Origin: a virus
Direction: 5' to 3' (one strand)
UHGV virus genome: UHGV-0076931
DNA length: 35,663 nucleotides
This document shows, piece after piece, positions 6,687 to 27,598 of the stretch. The translations under genes and the position numbers were made by a program. A model generated the notes under the pieces. The model ran no database searches and was not told where the DNA came from. It saw only the letters and a list, made by a program, of their open reading frames with translations. Position 1 is the stretch's first letter. Each line of letters opens with the position of its first letter.

Positions 6687-9480
6687 TATCCGGGTCGCTT
6701 TCAGCGCCGTTGACAGGCTGACCCGACCTGCCGAAAACGCCCGCCGCCTGATGGGGCAGTTTGGTGACTCCATCCAGCGAACGCAGGGGGCGATCAAAAA
6801 TCTCGAGCGTCAGGCGCGTTCATTTGAGCGCGCCCGCGACGCTGTCAGTAAAGCGGATGCGGGTATCGTGAAAGCGCGACGCCAGCTTAACGCCCTTAAT
6901 CAGTTACAACGCACGGGTACAGTGCTCAGCGAAAAACAACAAAAGCTGATGCAGCAGTTAAGCACCCGGCTTGAACGCCTGAATGAATCGCGCACACGGG
7001 AAATTCAGAAAATGCGGGAGCTTGGCGGAGAGCTGAAACGCCACGGCATTTCCCTGACAGGCAGCGATAACACCATCCAGCAGGCCATCAGACGCACCGA
7101 ACAGTACAACAACCAGCTTGAACGCGAACGGCAGGCGCTTGCGCGTGTAACGCGGGCGCGTGAGCGGTATTCGCGCGCGCAGGAAACCGCGGGAAAACTG
7201 AAAACAGGTGGTGCGCTGGCAATTGGTGCGGCAGCGGCTGGCGGCTATGCTACCGGGCGTTTTTTGCAGCCTGCGATCGGGTTCGGGAAAGAGATGTCCC
7301 GCGTTCAGGCACTGACGCGAATCGACCAGAACAGCCCGCAGTTTAAGGCGCTGCGTGAGCAGGCGTTAAAACTTGGCTCTGAAACGCAGTTCACCGCAGG
7401 CGATGCCGCCAGTGGGCAGGCATTTCTTGCAATGGCTGGCTTCACACCGCAGGCCATTCAGGCTGCGCTTCCCGGAGTGCTGAGCATGGCAACGGCTGGC
7501 GGTATGGATCTCGGCGAGACGGCTGATATTGGCTCAAATATCCTGACGCAGTTCGGCCTTTCTGCTGACCAGATGGACCGGGTCGGTGACACACTCACCG
7601 CAGCGTTTACCCGTACCAACACTGACCTTCGCGCACTGGGCGAAACCATGAAATATGCAGGTCCGGTGGCGGGCAAGCTGGGAATATCGCTGGAGCAGGC
7701 CGCAGCGATGGCGGGCGTGCTGGCGAATATGGGTATCAGGGGAAGTGATGCCGGGACGGCAATGCGTGCCAGCCTGGCTCGTCTGGCATCACCGCCAAAG
7801 GCGGCAGCAGAGGCGCTGAAAGAGCTGGGCGTGTCTGTCTCGGATGCCGGGGGCAAAATGCGCCCGATGGAGGATGTGCTGGCCGACCTTTATAAAGCCA
7901 CCCGCAAATACGGGGAAGTTGACCGGGTATCGTTCTTTAAGGACATTGCCGGAGAAGAGGCTTTCACATCGTTTATGGCGCTCGTTGATGCAGCGGGTGA
8001 CGGTTCCTTACCCAAACTGAGAAAAGAACTTGAAGGCGCGCGCGGTGAGGCTGAACGCACAGCAAAGGTTATGGCCAACAACCTTGACGGCGATCTGAAA
8101 TCACTCGGCAGTGCATGGGAAGGGTTGCGCATCCGCATTGCAGATCTGATTGACGGTCCGCTGCGTTCTGTCACGCAGTGGCTCACGCGAGTGGTCTCAA
8201 AGGTGACGGCGCTGGCGCAGGCCCATCCCGCACTGACGCGCCAGCTACTGATAGCAGGCGGTGCGTTGCTGGCAATGACTGCAACGGTTGGCTCGTTGTC
8301 GCTGGCTATTGGTGTGCTTGCTGGCCCGCTGGCAAAACTGCGTCTTGGTTTTTCTCTCCTGGCCGGATCAATGAATGTCGTCAGGGTGCTGCCAGCACTA
8401 TGGGGAATGGTAACAGGTTCCATCTCGTTGCTGGGTGGCGCTATCGGGGCGCTGTTCAGTCCGGTTGGTCTTATCGTGGCTGCGCTTGCCGGAGCTGCCG
8501 TTCTTATCTGGAAATACTGGGAACCCATCAAGGCGTTTTATGCCGGGGTGTTCAGCGGGATTATGGAACGGCTGGCTCCGTTGCGCGAAACCTTTGAACG
8601 GTTTGGTCCTGTTTTTGATGTCGTGCGCGATGGGATTATTCAGCTCTTTAACTGGTTTAAATCGCTGCTGTCACCGATGGAGTCCAGCAAGGAAACGCTG
8701 GATAAATGTACCAGTGCTGGCGAGATATTCGGTAACGTTCTTGGTGGCGCGCTACAGCTTGTTCTGACGCCTGCAAAAATGCTGCTGGATACGCTGGCGT
8801 GGATACTTGAAAAACTCGGTGTGCTTCCGGATGAAGCGGAAAGGGCGCGCAAGAAAATCGAAGACGCACAGCGTGCGGCCATTCTTCAGGACAAGGTTGC
8901 CTTGCTTCAGGGGGACCTGGCGAAAATCAATCCGCCGAAGCCTGTGGAAAATGGCAATGGCACCGGAGGTGATAACCCCAAAGACAATAAACCGCTCACA
9001 GACAGCAATACCGGTACGCTGCGCAGACTCAGCAAAATTGCTGATAACACTGGTAAGCTGGTTGAGGAGACGAAAAAACGCATTGGCCCCGGCGATATTG
9101 TCTTTAAAAACCTGCCCCGAGCACTTGCTGTTCGTGGGGAGTGGCAGGAGCGGAAGATTGCGCAGGTCAGTAAGCCTGCCCCCGCAATTAATATCACACC
9201 CGTGGTCCCGGCTCCGCTGCCTCCGGCGCTGGTCCCTGTTGTTGCGGCCAGCTCCCGCCCGGTGGCGGAGGCTATACGATCTCCAGTGGCATCAGTTCCT
9301 GTAACTTCCCGTAACCGCGAGCCTGTTGCCTCCGGATTTGGTGGTGAAATTCATGTTCATCTGCATAACGTTGTTACGCAGAATCCCCGCGAACTGGCGA
9401 AACTGGTCGGTGAAATGGTCAGGGCAGAAATGGAACGGCGCGCCCGTGCCGGGCGTGGCAGTTTTTACGATAAAGATTGA
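6637..9480 (+). CDS. T: Tail tape measure protein
   Basis: 947 aa, coiled-coil N-terminal part, Ala/Gly-rich hydrophobic middle; position after E/E'; exact start uncertain (GTG 6637 or ATG 6664/6673). Confidence 0.9.
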   Translation: MSGRHFAAGMQTMKTLDIRVAFSAVDRLTRPAENARRLMGQFGDSIQRTQGAIKNLERQARSFERARDAVSKADAGIVKARRQLNALNQLQRTGTVLSEKQQKLMQQLSTRLERLNESRTREIQKMRELGGELKRHGISLTGSDNTIQQAIRRTEQYNNQLERERQALARVTRARERYSRAQETAGKLKTGGALAIGAAAAGGYATGRFLQPAIGFGKEMSRVQALTRIDQNSPQFKALREQALKLGSETQFTAGDAASGQAFLAMAGFTPQAIQAALPGVLSMATAGGMDLGETADIGSNILTQFGLSADQMDRVGDTLTAAFTRTNTDLRALGETMKYAGPVAGKLGISLEQAAAMAGVLANMGIRGSDAGTAMRASLARLASPPKAAAEALKELGVSVSDAGGKMRPMEDVLADLYKATRKYGEVDRVSFFKDIAGEEAFTSFMALVDAAGDGSLPKLRKELEGARGEAERTAKVMANNLDGDLKSLGSAWEGLRIRIADLIDGPLRSVTQWLTRVVSKVTALAQAHPALTRQLLIAGGALLAMTATVGSLSLAIGVLAGPLAKLRLGFSLLAGSMNVVRVLPALWGMVTGSISLLGGAIGALFSPVGLIVAALAGAAVLIWKYWEPIKAFYAGVFSGIMERLAPLRETFERFGPVFDVVRDGIIQLFNWFKSLLSPMESSKETLDKCTSAGEIFGNVLGGALQLVLTPAKMLLDTLAWILEKLGVLPDEAERARKKIEDAQRAAILQDKVALLQGDLAKINPPKPVENGNGTGGDNPKDNKPLTDSNTGTLRRLSKIADNTGKLVEETKKRIGPGDIVFKNLPRALAVRGEWQERKIAQVSKPAPAINITPVVPAPLPPALVPVVAASSRPVAEAIRSPVASVPVTSRNREPVASGFGGEIHVHLHNVVTQNPRELAKLVGEMVRAEMERRARAGRGSFYDKD

Positions 9481-9486
9481 GGAGTC

Positions 9487-9981
9487 ATGGCCATGATGAT
9501 GATCTACGGCATGTTTGTTTTTGAGCTGCGCACGCTGCCGCATCAGCAGTTACAGCAAAACAAAAGCTGGCGGCATGTGAAAAATGAACGCGTTAACCGT
9601 TCAGCAAGCTGGCAGTATATCGGTGCAGGTGATGATCGCATCGTTCTTTCTGGTGTGCTTTATCCTGAAATTACAGGTGGCGAAGTGTCGCTGTCGCTGC
9701 TGACCACGCAGGCGTATACAGGACGACCCTGGCCTTTGATTGATGGCGTCGGGCAGATTTACGGTATGTATGTCCTGACCGGAACGAATACGACCCGTTC
9801 CGAGTTTGATCGCTACGGTAAGGCGAAAAAGATAGAATTTTCACTGACCCTTGAACGCTGTGATGAGGATTTGCGGGAGCGCCTGCAATCCTCATCGTTC
9901 AGCGATATGCTGTCCGGCTTCAAAGATAAGGTGACATCATCCCTTAACAGCGCGGCAAGTTCAGTAAAAGGGTTGTTCTGA
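9487..9981 (+). CDS. U: Tail protein U
   Basis: 164 aa directly after T; size and position match P2 gpU. Confidence 0.8.
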   Translation: MAMMMIYGMFVFELRTLPHQQLQQNKSWRHVKNERVNRSASWQYIGAGDDRIVLSGVLYPEITGGEVSLSLLTTQAYTGRPWPLIDGVGQIYGMYVLTGTNTTRSEFDRYGKAKKIEFSLTLERCDEDLRERLQSSSFSDMLSGFKDKVTSSLNSAASSVKGLF

Positions 9982-9993
9982 TTTAACACAAAA

Positions 9994-10020
9994 ACCGCTA
10001 ATGGTCAGATTAGCGGTTTT
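9994..10020. terminator. Bidirectional intrinsic terminator between convergent U and H
   Basis: Stem accgctaat / attagcggt with 6-nt loop, flanked by an A-run upstream and T-run downstream. Confidence 0.7.
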
Positions 10021-10171
10021 CTTTTTCCTTAGTCTTCTCAATTGTTTCTTCAGTCTGTATATCGCCTACAGGGTGATAACGATAAATCGTCGATATACTG
10101 ATACCGTAAATTATTGCCAGTTGTTTTCTGTCATGACCGTTTTTAATAAGCCTTGCTATTTGAATGTTCAC
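10010..10171 (-). pseudogene. Remnant of a serine DNA invertase (Hin/Gin/Cin/Pin-type), C-terminal HTH only
   Basis: Hand translation ...IARLIKNGHDRKQLAIIYGISISTIYRYHPV... resembles the C-terminal HTH of Hin-family invertases; no room upstream for a catalytic domain (H stop at 10217). Confidence 0.5.
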
Positions 10172-10216
10172 CCAAGGAATGCCTCCCTTAAGAAAGGGGG
10201 CAACCTTACCTACAAA

Positions 10217-12814
10217 TCAGTATTTATAATAACGTCCAGGCAGCACAGGAGAGTTAACATTCCAGAACCCCTGCGGATCGCATGCCAGTATCATCCAGGC
10301 TGTATTACAGGAGGACGGCCACGGTGGCATATCATCATTATCGGGGTAGTCACACGAATCAATATAACCGTAGCGTGTGCGCAGTGGTGCCAGCCTCGCC
10401 AGAATATCCATCGCGGTGGTATCATCTCCCAGTCTGCGGGCCAGCAATGCCACGCCTGCACTGCCCTCCACCCAGACTCCACGCTGTTTATTCGGGTAGC
10501 CATATTCCGGATGATAAGGCGTGTACCCTGTCGCATCGTGCGTGGCGTACCAGAGTCTGCCCAGGTAAGTAAAACACCGCCGGGCTTTTTCCATATCTAT
10601 ATTGGCCACAAACAGCCCTCCCCAGCTCGCGCAGTCCAGCGGTGAGGCCTTGTCCACCCCGGTAGTCCGCATCCCGGCATAAAATCGTCCTTCGTCCTCC
10701 ACCCACAGTTTTTCCATAATGGCATCCGCCAGGGCTTTCGCTTTTTCAGCATAGCCGGTGAAGCCCAACCGTCCCATCAGATCAAACAAAAACCACAGGT
10801 CGAACTGATGTTCTGACGTGCACCAGTCTGCGTCAAAATCCGGATAAAACACACCATTCAGATACTGTCCGCTACCGGATGTATACAAACCAGAGCGAAC
10901 ATCACTGCCATCTGTGACCCTGAACATTTCAATCCATTCTGCGCACTGCATCAGTTTATCCCGGGCAACAACGGCCATTTCACCGTCCGGATATTTCAGC
11001 AGATAATACGCCAGCGCATACGCCACCCACGCTGCGTTTCCCGTCCGGTAATACTGCGATGATGTTTGTGCTGACATACGGTTCACAAAAAAAGGCACGC
11101 TTCCCTCACTGCCTCCGCTGCCCACAATCGCACACAACCCGCGAACAAAACGCTCAACCTGACTGTGCCCCTGCGCCATCAGGGCAATGGCCGACACAGC
11201 CTGGTCGTAAGTGTACGTACGGTCTTTCATCACCCTTACCGTTTCGTCTCCGGCATCCGATGGCACCCGGTAAGAGCGGATACACAGCGGGTCTTCCCAG
11301 ACAGTTACCAGACCGTTATTTGATGTACGATACAGTTTAAAAGACTTGGCCCCCGGCCAGCTTCTGGCGAAACTGAACGTGCCGTCACTCTCTAATACTA
11401 CAGAGGAAAACTGATATTCCAGAGTTGTGCTGGCACACAGCGCAATGGTGTAGCTCTGCGGATCACCGATACTGCACTGACCTGTGACCGGACCGGTATA
11501 GTCCGTTGTCAGCTCTTCATTTACCGTCAGCGTAACGGATTTGTTGTACACATCAGGGGCATTCAGCGATAAAAGTTCCGCTGTGCAGGTTTCCGCCAGT
11601 GTGTAAAAATTTTCCACCCGGCTGTTGCGTTCGCAGGTTGTGATCTGCGAGTGAAATTTATCAATTATTTCCGTTAATCGAAGGTAATCTAGAACATCCT
11701 CAGCACTGGTCTTACTAATAATTTCACGTCCAACACTTGTTAATGCAGTTAATGCGGCACGATTTGCCCCTGTAAAATAAGGGAGTTTATCTGCTGATGT
11801 AGCAAGCTCCGCCAGCGCCGTCAGGGTGGCATCCTTCGGTTGCTTACCCGCAAGCGCGTCAATCACGGTGGTTGCAAAATTAGGGTCATTGCCCAGCGCC
11901 GCAGCCAGTTCGTTCAGCGTGTTCAGTGCATCAGGTGACGAATCTACAAGTGCGGCAATCGCGGCCATAACGAAAGCCGTGCTTGCGATCTGGGCATTAT
12001 TAGTCCCCTGTGGCGCTGTTGGTGTTGTTGGCGTTCCGGTCAGTGCCGGGCTGTTTAATGGTGCTTTCTTGTTCGTTTCATCCATTACCACCTTGACAGC
12101 TTTTGGTGTCGCTGCCAGCGTTTCAGACGTGCTGTTCGTGGCGCTACTGAGCTGAACAATCCCTTTTTGTGTAGTGGTGGCGTTCTGGGCGGTATATTTC
12201 CCGTTAGCCAGGTCATATGCAGCCTTAACCGCTTTCGGTGTTGCGGCCAGTGTTTCTGATTCACTGTTAATTGCACTGCTTAACTGAGTAAAACCTTTTA
12301 CGGTCAGCGAGGCGTCCGGGTGACGTCGTGACTGTTCGTGCTCTGATATTTTATCATCCACATATTTGCGGGTTGCCAGAACCACAGACGGGTCGATTTT
12401 CAGCGTGATGGCTTCGGTGTTCGTGACAACCAGAATCATTCGGATAGTCTGGGTGCGTCCACTGCCTTCCTGCAACTGCGGTTTGTACGTTTCCGGGCAG
12501 TTTGCCACCGCAATGAGTACACCTTCATCATCATAAAGACCAATCTCACGGATCCAGAATCCTCCCTCGTTTTCAGGGATGATTTGCTCCGCAATAATCT
12601 GGCTCTGATTGTTAGGGTCAACACTCAGAAGATTCAGCGGTGCAATGCGTTTCTGGTTAATCAGTTTTGTTTGTGCAGGGTCTGGTGTTGGTAACACACC
12701 ATTTGCATCACCAACGGCCATTTGCGTCAGATTCAGCTTACTGCCGAGCATCGTCGCGTTAGCCAGTCGTGCCGCGCCCTGATTAGTCAGAATGGCGTAG
12801 TATTTCACTGTCAT
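10217..12814 (-). CDS. H: Tail fibre protein H, chimeric: P2 gpH-type N-terminus plus distinct C-terminal domain
   Basis: N-terminal ~370 aa match P2 gpH including the duplicated LSSA(I/T)NS(E/T)SETLAATPKAVK repeats; remaining ~490 aa unrelated, rich in W/Y/D/E. Confidence 0.9.
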   Translation of the reverse strand: MTVKYYAILTNQGAARLANATMLGSKLNLTQMAVGDANGVLPTPDPAQTKLINQKRIAPLNLLSVDPNNQSQIIAEQIIPENEGGFWIREIGLYDDEGVLIAVANCPETYKPQLQEGSGRTQTIRMILVVTNTEAITLKIDPSVVLATRKYVDDKISEHEQSRRHPDASLTVKGFTQLSSAINSESETLAATPKAVKAAYDLANGKYTAQNATTTQKGIVQLSSATNSTSETLAATPKAVKVVMDETNKKAPLNSPALTGTPTTPTAPQGTNNAQIASTAFVMAAIAALVDSSPDALNTLNELAAALGNDPNFATTVIDALAGKQPKDATLTALAELATSADKLPYFTGANRAALTALTSVGREIISKTSAEDVLDYLRLTEIIDKFHSQITTCERNSRVENFYTLAETCTAELLSLNAPDVYNKSVTLTVNEELTTDYTGPVTGQCSIGDPQSYTIALCASTTLEYQFSSVVLESDGTFSFARSWPGAKSFKLYRTSNNGLVTVWEDPLCIRSYRVPSDAGDETVRVMKDRTYTYDQAVSAIALMAQGHSQVERFVRGLCAIVGSGGSEGSVPFFVNRMSAQTSSQYYRTGNAAWVAYALAYYLLKYPDGEMAVVARDKLMQCAEWIEMFRVTDGSDVRSGLYTSGSGQYLNGVFYPDFDADWCTSEHQFDLWFLFDLMGRLGFTGYAEKAKALADAIMEKLWVEDEGRFYAGMRTTGVDKASPLDCASWGGLFVANIDMEKARRCFTYLGRLWYATHDATGYTPYHPEYGYPNKQRGVWVEGSAGVALLARRLGDDTTAMDILARLAPLRTRYGYIDSCDYPDNDDMPPWPSSCNTAWMILACDPQGFWNVNSPVLPGRYYKY

Positions 12815-26638: not shown

Positions 26639-27598
26639 TTACTCCTTGTCCATTGCGTACAGCCCATTAACCAGAGCAAACTGTGGCACCCCGTCCGCGA
26701 TGAAAGTCGCATTAACTCCGCAGGCTTCGCGGATAGCGGGTGCCACAATCTCCGCCCCTCCACCGACAACCATCGCCCGCCCGTAACCCGAAAAACCCGC
26801 CAGCGCGCGGATCACGCGTTGTTTCAGTGTTTCTTCCTTTTCACGAATAACAGCCATCAGGCTGTCGTAATGCGCGTCATTGTGGATGTGCTGGCGCAGC
26901 CAGGCTTCATCATGGCGATGTTCGATAATGGTATTGGCGATATGGTGACTGGTGCGCATACCGTTAGTGGCCATCACCGACAGTACGGCATCGGCCATCA
27001 GGGAAACGCCTACGTGTGGATCGCAAAACACCTGGCTGATACCTGCCAGTTGCCCCTGAACCTTTGCCACATCCAGCGTGGTTCCGCCCAAATCCACAAT
27101 CAGCAGGGATTCAAACGGACTCATGTCAGCCAGTGCTTTAAAGCCAGCCGGAATGGATTCAGGCATAACCCGCACGTTACGGATAGTGAATGCTTCGCCG
27201 TTCTGGTACTCCACCGGGCGCATAACGTTCGCTTTTTTGCGGTTGATGTTGGCCATGTCCGGCTGTGCGTTTGTGTCGAAATACTCGCTCAGTGGCAGGG
27301 TGACAACCACATCCACCTCCTGTGGCGTGATGCCTGATTTGACCAGCGCGTGATGAATGGCAATTACATTCACATCGCTGTACTGGTATTGCGTGTCGGT
27401 CGTCTGGACAAAGCGATCGCTGACCGGATCAAAACCATAGCGCACGCCATCAAGCATGTAGTTTGCGGGCTGCGTGCCACCGAACGGCGCAGACCATTCC
27501 GACTTGAAGCTGTTCGGGCTGATGGCGTTGCGGCGTTCTCCGTTCTCAGTCCATGCCAGCTTGATGTTGGTGGAGCCGTCATCGATACAAATTTTCAT
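26639..27598 (-). CDS. parM: ParM (StbA) actin-like plasmid segregation ATPase
   Basis: Collinear match to R1 ParM blocks: IDDGSTNIKL, ISPNSFK, YSDVNVIAIHHAL, VMPESIPAGF, DLGGTTLD, GGGAE, LVNGLY. Confidence 0.88.
   Translation of the reverse strand: MKICIDDGSTNIKLAWTENGERRNAISPNSFKSEWSAPFGGTQPANYMLDGVRYGFDPVSDRFVQTTDTQYQYSDVNVIAIHHALVKSGITPQEVDVVVTLPLSEYFDTNAQPDMANINRKKANVMRPVEYQNGEAFTIRNVRVMPESIPAGFKALADMSPFESLLIVDLGGTTLDVAKVQGQLAGISQVFCDPHVGVSLMADAVLSVMATNGMRTSHHIANTIIEHRHDEAWLRQHIHNDAHYDSLMAVIREKEETLKQRVIRALAGFSGYGRAMVVGGGAEIVAPAIREACGVNATFIADGVPQFALVNGLYAMDKE

Follow-up and report, generated by a model that had tools for sequence, protein, structure and literature searches.

The window, that is the whole stretch of 35,663 nucleotides analysed here, is an E. 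coli prophage related to P2; it is complete and belongs to the P88 type (genus Xuanwuvirus, Peduoviridae). Its genes FI-FII-E-T-U are convergent with V-W-J-I-H, and a P2 GpA replication protein and a tyrosine integrase are present as well. Sheath, tube, E, tape measure and GpU are encoded on the plus strand and H, I, J, W and V on the minus strand; Pfam matches were obtained for GpU, Tail_P2_I, GPD, GPA and integrase. Positions 6001-10162 share 94.8-96.3% DNA identity with phages 503458 and P88, and the prophage of E. coli ECL27977 is 100% identical to the window over the stretches compared. At the locus under study a hairpin terminator, common to the convergent U and H/invertase transcription units, is followed by the remnant of a DNA invertase gene, a short junction and the tail-fibre gene H (865 aa; 10217-12814, minus strand). 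Coordinates of the features are provided in Table 1.

Table 1. Features at the locus of the invertase remnant and tail-fibre gene H (positions in the window).
Feature	Position	Strand	Evidence
Bidirectional hairpin terminator	9991..10020	.	Terminator scan; kept in relatives with intact invertase
Invertase pseudogene remnant	10010..10162	-	HTH_7 and Hin 1hcr matches; DNA homology to intact invertases
Orphan junction DNA, H stop to remnant	10163..10216	-	Matches sibling records only
Acquired C-terminal spike module (~aa 391-865 of H)	10217..11643	-	DNA identity to tailspike genes; AF2; Foldseek
37-nt linker RLTEIIDKFHSQ	11644..11680	-	Matches neither backbone H nor tailspike donors
Degenerate hix/cix-like crossover site TTCTAGATTACC-TT-CGATTAACGGAA	11669..11694	-	Comparison with the site in L007 (E2348/69 prophage)
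H constant N-terminal part (P2-type collar and fibre repeats)	11681..12814	-	Pfam Phage_tail_fib, Phage_fiber_2
Mobile module: dead invertase, junction DNA, spike and residual site, plus ~240 nt from the end of the H constant part	~10016..11920	-	Identity to L012 (P1-like contig) versus backbone

A profile search with the 68-aa translation 3' of the H stop (10010-10216) yields the Pfam family HTH_7 (PF02796, the resolvase-type helix-turn-helix domain) with E=4.8e-9 and a score of 36.6 bits, against a curated cut-off of 23.8 bits; the Pfam families matched by this translation are all HTH families. It also matches the DNA-binding domain of Hin (PDB 1hcr, E=7e-10) and Gin (PDB 3uj3, E=1.5e-4). 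At the DNA level, positions 10000-10162 are 84-91% identical to the 3' end of intact invertase genes of 195-199 aa that are located just after gene U. The similarity to invertases is far above chance level, and the original prediction that only the C-terminal HTH of a Hin/Gin-type invertase is left is thereby borne out. In a serine invertase of the Hin/Cin family with 199 aa, the remnant corresponds to residues 150-199 and the TAA stop; its peptide, QIARLIKNGHDRKQLAIIYGISISTIYRYHPVGDIQTEETIEKTKEKENR, covers HTH helices 1-3 and the C-terminal tail only.

The homology breaks off exactly at 10162 (codon 150 of 199), after ...GCCTTGCTATTTG on the plus strand. The predicted range of 10010-10216 is therefore invertase-derived up to 10162, but consists of junction DNA from 10163 onwards. 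Likewise, the open reading frame of 53 codons from a GTG is indeed present (10010..10171, minus strand), but only 50 codons and the stop derive from the invertase: the GTG and the residues 'VNI' are contributed by the junction DNA. As also predicted, the frame runs into the U/H terminator, its TAA stop (10010-10012) being situated inside the hairpin, just as in the relatives with an intact gene.

In the window the frame is open from the GTG up to the TGA stop of H (10217-10219) and the ORF is in frame with H, as had been noted, but this relation does not hold in all copies. The run of C that separates the H stop from the GTG counts 5 nt in the window, 6 in STEC388, B1172 and the P1-like contig L012 (described below) and 7 in E275a. 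Because the length of the homopolymer run varies among sibling copies, the frame relation between the ORF and H is accidental, and read-through or fusion of H into the stub was rejected as it would shift with the run length. The difference in run length among near-identical copies may be due to slipped-strand variation or to sequencing error.

The junction DNA further contains a hairpin (10181-10201), a run of five G on the plus strand (10196-10200), the fortuitous GTG (10169-10171) and, 10 nt 5' of this GTG, a Shine-Dalgarno-like AGGGAGG that falls within the hairpin stem according to the predicted fold. Searching 5,426 complete E. coli genomes with 10163-10216 gave no match beyond eight sibling prophage records. 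A donor of this 54-nt 3' flank of H was not found in complete E. coli genomes, IMG/VR, GTDB representatives or PLSDB, where the sequence is seen in sibling prophages only.

The resolvase/invertase catalytic domain with its nucleophilic serine (residues ~1-135) is absent from the window; upstream of the remnant there is orphan DNA and then the H gene. Also missing is the minor-groove arm (GRPR / GGRRPK): the residues before QIARLI are GGRRPKLTKEQHE in the relatives against an unrelated, junction-encoded GGIPWVNI in the window. In total the 5' 447 nt of the invertase gene are gone. The Fis-dependent recombinational enhancer of the Hin/Gin/Cin family sits in the 5' part of the invertase gene, so no enhancer is possible at its usual place. 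In the RefSeq record of the ECL27977 prophage the identical stretch (corresponding to 10010-10162) is already listed by PGAP as a pseudogene ('helix-turn-helix domain-containing protein; incomplete; missing N-terminus').

Intact invertases are found in the same place in phage P88, phage 503458, the E2348/69 prophage (L007) and the F163 prophage (L008), all of which also carry the invertible block, as expected from the original prediction. Here U is followed by a convergent gene for a 195-199-aa 'DNA invertase/recombinase', then by opposite-strand fibre tips and assembly genes, a chaperone and H (U-> <-invertase [alternative fibre tips and chaperones] <-H). In the window the stub lies directly after H, and opposite-strand alternative fibre C-termini and assembly genes are absent. 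The convergent layout is ancestral: it is the normal one in P88-like phages and is shared by the relatives with intact invertases. The predicted link between the stub and a breakpoint of an inverted tail block is therefore wrong and has to be abandoned. In the F163 prophage (2057-5531) five extra short 'phage tail protein' segments are located between the invertase and H, an array that looks more like a shufflon-like (Min-type) region with several invertible segments than like a single one.

In the E2348/69 locus inverted repeats of 215-239 nt are present with crossover sites at their outer ends. One site is upstream of the invertase gene (TTCCCCCAAACC-AA-CGTTTTCGTTTT) and the other inside H (TTCTTGATTACC-TT-GGTTTGGGGGAA, coding for DYLGL); both share the 12-2-12 layout of the hix/gix/cix consensus. 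At the corresponding position in H the window has a degenerate site that codes for DYLRL instead. Outer half and core still match at 13 of 14 bases, whereas the inner half has decayed to 7 of 12. The outer half-site plus core (11681-11694) is the sole half-site match in the window, with 0.03 expected by chance. No full 26-bp crossover site was found in the window, neither at up to 3 mismatches nor with the degenerate consensus. Of the residual hix/gix-like sites suggested beforehand, one half-site with core can thus be recovered, but no complete one.

This residual site is also where the backbone ends. Between 11681 and 16000 the window is 97.7% identical to the E2348/69 and F163 prophages, and the homology stops at the central TT of the crossover site. 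The 1518 bp of 10163-11680 stand where the E2348/69 locus has 2513 bp (3488-6000).

Most of the replacing sequence is a spike. Positions 10217-11643 share 91-95% DNA identity with the C-terminal two-thirds of 636/673-aa 'tail fiber/spike domain' genes in other E. coli prophages, and the module is found on at least four types of N-terminal anchor (TSP1/Gp66-type spike, lambdoid side-fibre, P2 collar and P1-type S protein). Its sequence has no match in Pfam or PDB. The AlphaFold (AF2) model (pLDDT 74, pTM 0.80) predicts a beta-sandwich followed by an (alpha/alpha)6 barrel, for which Foldseek lists GH78 rhamnosidase at the top (E 4e-6 and weaker, ~1e-5 to 1e-6), together with other six-hairpin enzymes such as GH100 invertases and the AGE family, with a probability of 1.0 at a TM of only ~0.4-0.5. 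On the basis of this model the module is likely a polysaccharide-degrading glycosidase/depolymerase spike. A tail-fibre assembly (chaperone) gene is absent 3' of H.

Two further observations concern the spike. Protein P0064 (667 aa, from one assembled contig) is a variant of H with an in-frame internal deletion (...AALGNDP joined to LCIRSY...), which takes out the crossover motif together with linker and beta-sandwich and leaves the barrel in place. In L004 and L005 (3884-4000) tailspike genes with the spike module are located at prophage ends beside a truncated YkgJ-family gene (in L004 near potB); the 900-aa neighbour upstream of these tailspikes carries the name 'sulfur carrier protein ThiS', probably in error.

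Between the crossover core and the spike lies the 37-nt linker. It resembles the starts of canonical variable tips, namely GLGETIDKA (P1-like S protein) and GLVEFIDNA (Salmonella fibre), and by this resemblance may be read as the stump of an ancestral fibre tip. Concerning its origin, tblastn of phage genomes returned distant spike matches only, all beginning after the linker, and distant blastn in E. coli gave only a weak extension, in P1-like S genes.

Given that the backbone homology stops exactly at the central TT dinucleotide, it might be argued that the invertase itself created the junction in H, by recombining the H crossover site with a quasi-site beside a foreign spike gene, and that a deletion truncated the invertase gene later. 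The sequence past the TT is still half-site-like (7 of 12 positions), and Iida and co-workers reportedly documented Cin recombination at quasi-sites. However, variable tips normally start just past the crossover site, so that a break of homology is expected there anyway, and the 12 residues past the site look like the ordinary tip starts named above, which places the true spike fusion ~37 nt further in. Moreover, wild-type invertases work within one molecule and depend on the enhancer, and the junction at 10162/10163 has no site-like sequence. We therefore regard an invertase-made junction as quite improbable.

The same scar is present outside the P2-like phages. Several E. coli assemblies encode 818-aa 'tail fiber' proteins that are 97% identical over the whole query, linker included. 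One of these genes is situated on an 89.6-kb contig (L012) together with genes for P1 Gp16, P1 tail fibre R, LydB and DarA, which identify this contig as a P1-like phage-plasmid; directly after it the gene caller placed a 44-aa HTH_7 ORF. The junction reads ...TGATTTGTAGGTAAG(G/A)TTG-Cn-TTTCTTAAGGGAGGCATTCCTTGGGTGAACATT and, past the boundary, CAAATAGCAAGG... in both the window and L012. Overall, eight of the 20,395 complete E. coli records contain the junction, in each case on the chromosome. Two IMG/VR contigs (L011 and L017) of the same phage have it as well, whereas it is absent from PLSDB.

Comparison of the two elements delimits a unit of exchange. The window is 96.6% identical to L012 from 12067 to 10066; beyond 10066 each element has its own type of invertase tail, which puts a recombination crossover inside the stub. 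At the other end, sliding-window identity over 11681-11920 is 98-100% to L012 but 82-97% to the E2348/69 locus, and above 11921 the window is 97-100% identical to the latter. Gene U (9356-9955) shows 95-100% identity to P88-type phages per 60-nt block, against ~89% for 10016-10162. Since divergence from the backbone relatives is higher in the module than in the sequence on either side, a unit of ~1.9 kb seems to have moved via homologous recombination.

A probable origin of the fusion is indicated by the outer segments of the module. The HTH segment is ~90% identical to P88-type invertases versus ~81% to P1-type cin, and the H constant segment in the module is ~90% identical to the P88/P2 type versus ~78-82% to the P1 type. 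As both are closer to the P88/P2 type, the fusion of spike and dead invertase most likely arose in a P2/P88-type phage, as far as can be read from sequence identity. The reverse order, in which the fusion was born in a P1-like phage-plasmid and subsequently imported into a P88-like prophage, would agree with the module being foreign to the backbone of the window at both ends, and with the several E. coli assemblies that have 818-aa S-type proteins carrying it. Nonetheless, the P88/P2-type character of both segments goes against it, as does the lack of any finished P1-like plasmid with the junction in PLSDB or the complete E. coli genomes, and we consider this order unlikely.

Downstream of cin, P1-like plasmids have a stretch of ~95-170 nt that resembles the 5' end of cin and is possibly a partial duplicate (L009, 2163-2331 versus 2951-3045; L010, 490-658 versus 1278-1372; L012, 10907-11074). 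The apparent inverted copy of an invertase 5' end downstream in L012 is general to P1-like backbones (also in L009 and L010).

Overall, it is very likely that the remnant is the stub of a dead invertase, left when an invertible fibre segment was replaced with a fixed spike. In P88-like phages H ends in an invertible segment of alternative C-terminal tips and chaperones, flipped by a Hin/Cin-family invertase whose gene is the last of the unit, with its stop codon within the terminator shared with convergent U. The replacement would have removed the inner crossover half in H, the tips, the chaperones, the second site, the enhancer-bearing 5' end and invertase codons 1-149. What was inserted instead would be one chaperone-independent spike domain with a glycosidase-like fold, together with 54 nt of its 3' flank. 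The fusion presumably formed once, in a phage with a P88-type invertase, after which the ~1.9-kb module may have spread by homologous recombination via the H constant region and the invertase 3' end/terminator. The single event for both junctions and the phage lineage of origin are what we infer from these comparisons.

As the stub has no catalytic domain, no arm and no pair of sites, recombination is not possible and the fibre specificity is fixed. The prediction had also held that the ancestor lost its invertible segment when the current C-terminus of H was acquired. Compared with the relatives the block has indeed been replaced, but the loss probably did not take place in the prophage's own lineage, because the identical junction is present in the P1-like contig and the module is more diverged than its flanks. 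One might go further and see portable homology arms in the stub and in the end of the H constant part, which is conserved; by these a spike cassette of fixed specificity would hop between unrelated backbones (P2-like prophages and P1-like phage-plasmids) and overwrite switchable segments. Under this reading foreign DNA might even have been captured by the invertase, with the H-side junction at the crossover core as its fossil. We put this forward tentatively and think it rather doubtful.

An independent case of decay is seen in Escherichia phage PhiR44_2 (P88-like, PV340564.1), which likewise has no invertase and carries a 3' stub beside the U terminator. It differs in its breakpoint, which left ~18 codons, and in having an ordinary fibre tip and chaperone and no spike. 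In this phage (L016, 5083-5170) the remnant ...PIGDIQAEETTRQIQEKENR*, ending at its stop, is joined directly to the fibre-chaperone region. Being independent, it implies that the switch was lost more than once in P88-like phages. It also points to retention of the shared terminator and not of the peptide: the stub in the window would have been kept since its deletion would take the terminator along, and not for a function of the peptide.

The isolated DNA-binding domain of Hin is folded and binds DNA in crystal structures (1hcr family), which raises the question whether a small HTH protein has been domesticated in the form of the 53-codon ORF. Starting from the junction GTG and binding hix/cix-like sites, such a protein could for example interfere with invertases of co-resident P1- or P2-like phages or regulate nearby genes. 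The ORF is open in every copy seen, including the P1-like contig with its called 44-aa HTH_7 ORF, and AGGGAGG precedes the GTG by 10 nt. This motif is however buried in the hairpin stem, and no promoter-like site was found in 9800-10400. GRPR-type arms are required for site binding in Hin biochemistry, and the stub is without one (GGRRPK in the relatives). Furthermore, the conserved glycine of the HTH turn (GIG) is a serine in the stub (GIS), and the L012 copy has a radical Leu-to-Gln change in helix 2, both of which may be taken as signs of relaxed constraint. PGAP calls the stub a pseudogene, and the 18 codons retained in PhiR44_2 suggest that the terminator is kept rather than the peptide. 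Over 32 codons the stub differs from P88-type invertases by 5-6 synonymous and 2-3 non-synonymous changes; its ORF sequence is identical in all prophage copies, so that neither decay nor selection has had time enough to become visible. A functional peptide is, in our opinion, very improbable, and we retain the reading as a non-functional stub.

With regard to known systems, the remnant is the HTH_7 domain of the Hin/Gin/Cin/Pin/Min invertase family (Mu G segment, P1 C segment, p15B Min, P88-like phages), in the same position and orientation as the intact genes of P88, 503458 and E2348/69, and the crossover site in H encodes the DYLGL motif in the relatives. In contrast to a working switch of this family, the gene is a pseudogene: neither catalytic domain nor enhancer region is left, and the second site is missing along with alternative tips and chaperones. 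Also related are the degenerate cin loci of the P1-like pSvP1, pTZ20_1P and pJIE250-3, where a truncated cin and lost C-segments were described (PMC6906374). These share with the window a truncated invertase, the loss of the switchable segment and a fixed host range. The truncation there is IS-mediated or leaves the N-terminal catalytic part, whereas in the window the C-terminal HTH is left, the deletion is tied to the gain of a spike and the scar is common to two phage families.

It is textbook knowledge that fibre modules are transferred horizontally between phages of the P1, P2, Mu and lambda types. The occurrence of the (alpha/alpha)6 module on podovirus-type tailspikes and on lambdoid, P2-collar and P1-type S anchors fits such modular exchange of tailspikes and receptor-binding proteins. 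In principle there is no difference, and the window adds one more instance, with boundaries that can be mapped. It concerns a known kind of decay and exchange that is well resolved here, and no new mechanism. A phase-variable host-range switch appears to have been traded for a single, putatively enzymatic receptor-binding spike, with both junctions mapped to the base, and the cassette including its scar seems to have been exchanged between a P2-like prophage and a P1-like phage-plasmid. For annotation, this means that the 'HTH domain-containing protein' pseudogene can be named an invertase remnant; for host-range prediction, the specificity of such prophages would be fixed and probably directed at polysaccharides.

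Elsewhere in the window, a full-length ParM/StbA actin-like plasmid-segregation protein (26639-27598, minus strand; E=1.8e-82) is encoded beside the GpA gene, inside an integrated P2-like prophage. Beyond GpD, the cargo-like genes at 50-841 and 1896-2966 (both minus strand) code for an N6/N4 DNA methylase and a 356-aa PIN_12-domain protein, which may form a defence or anti-defence module.
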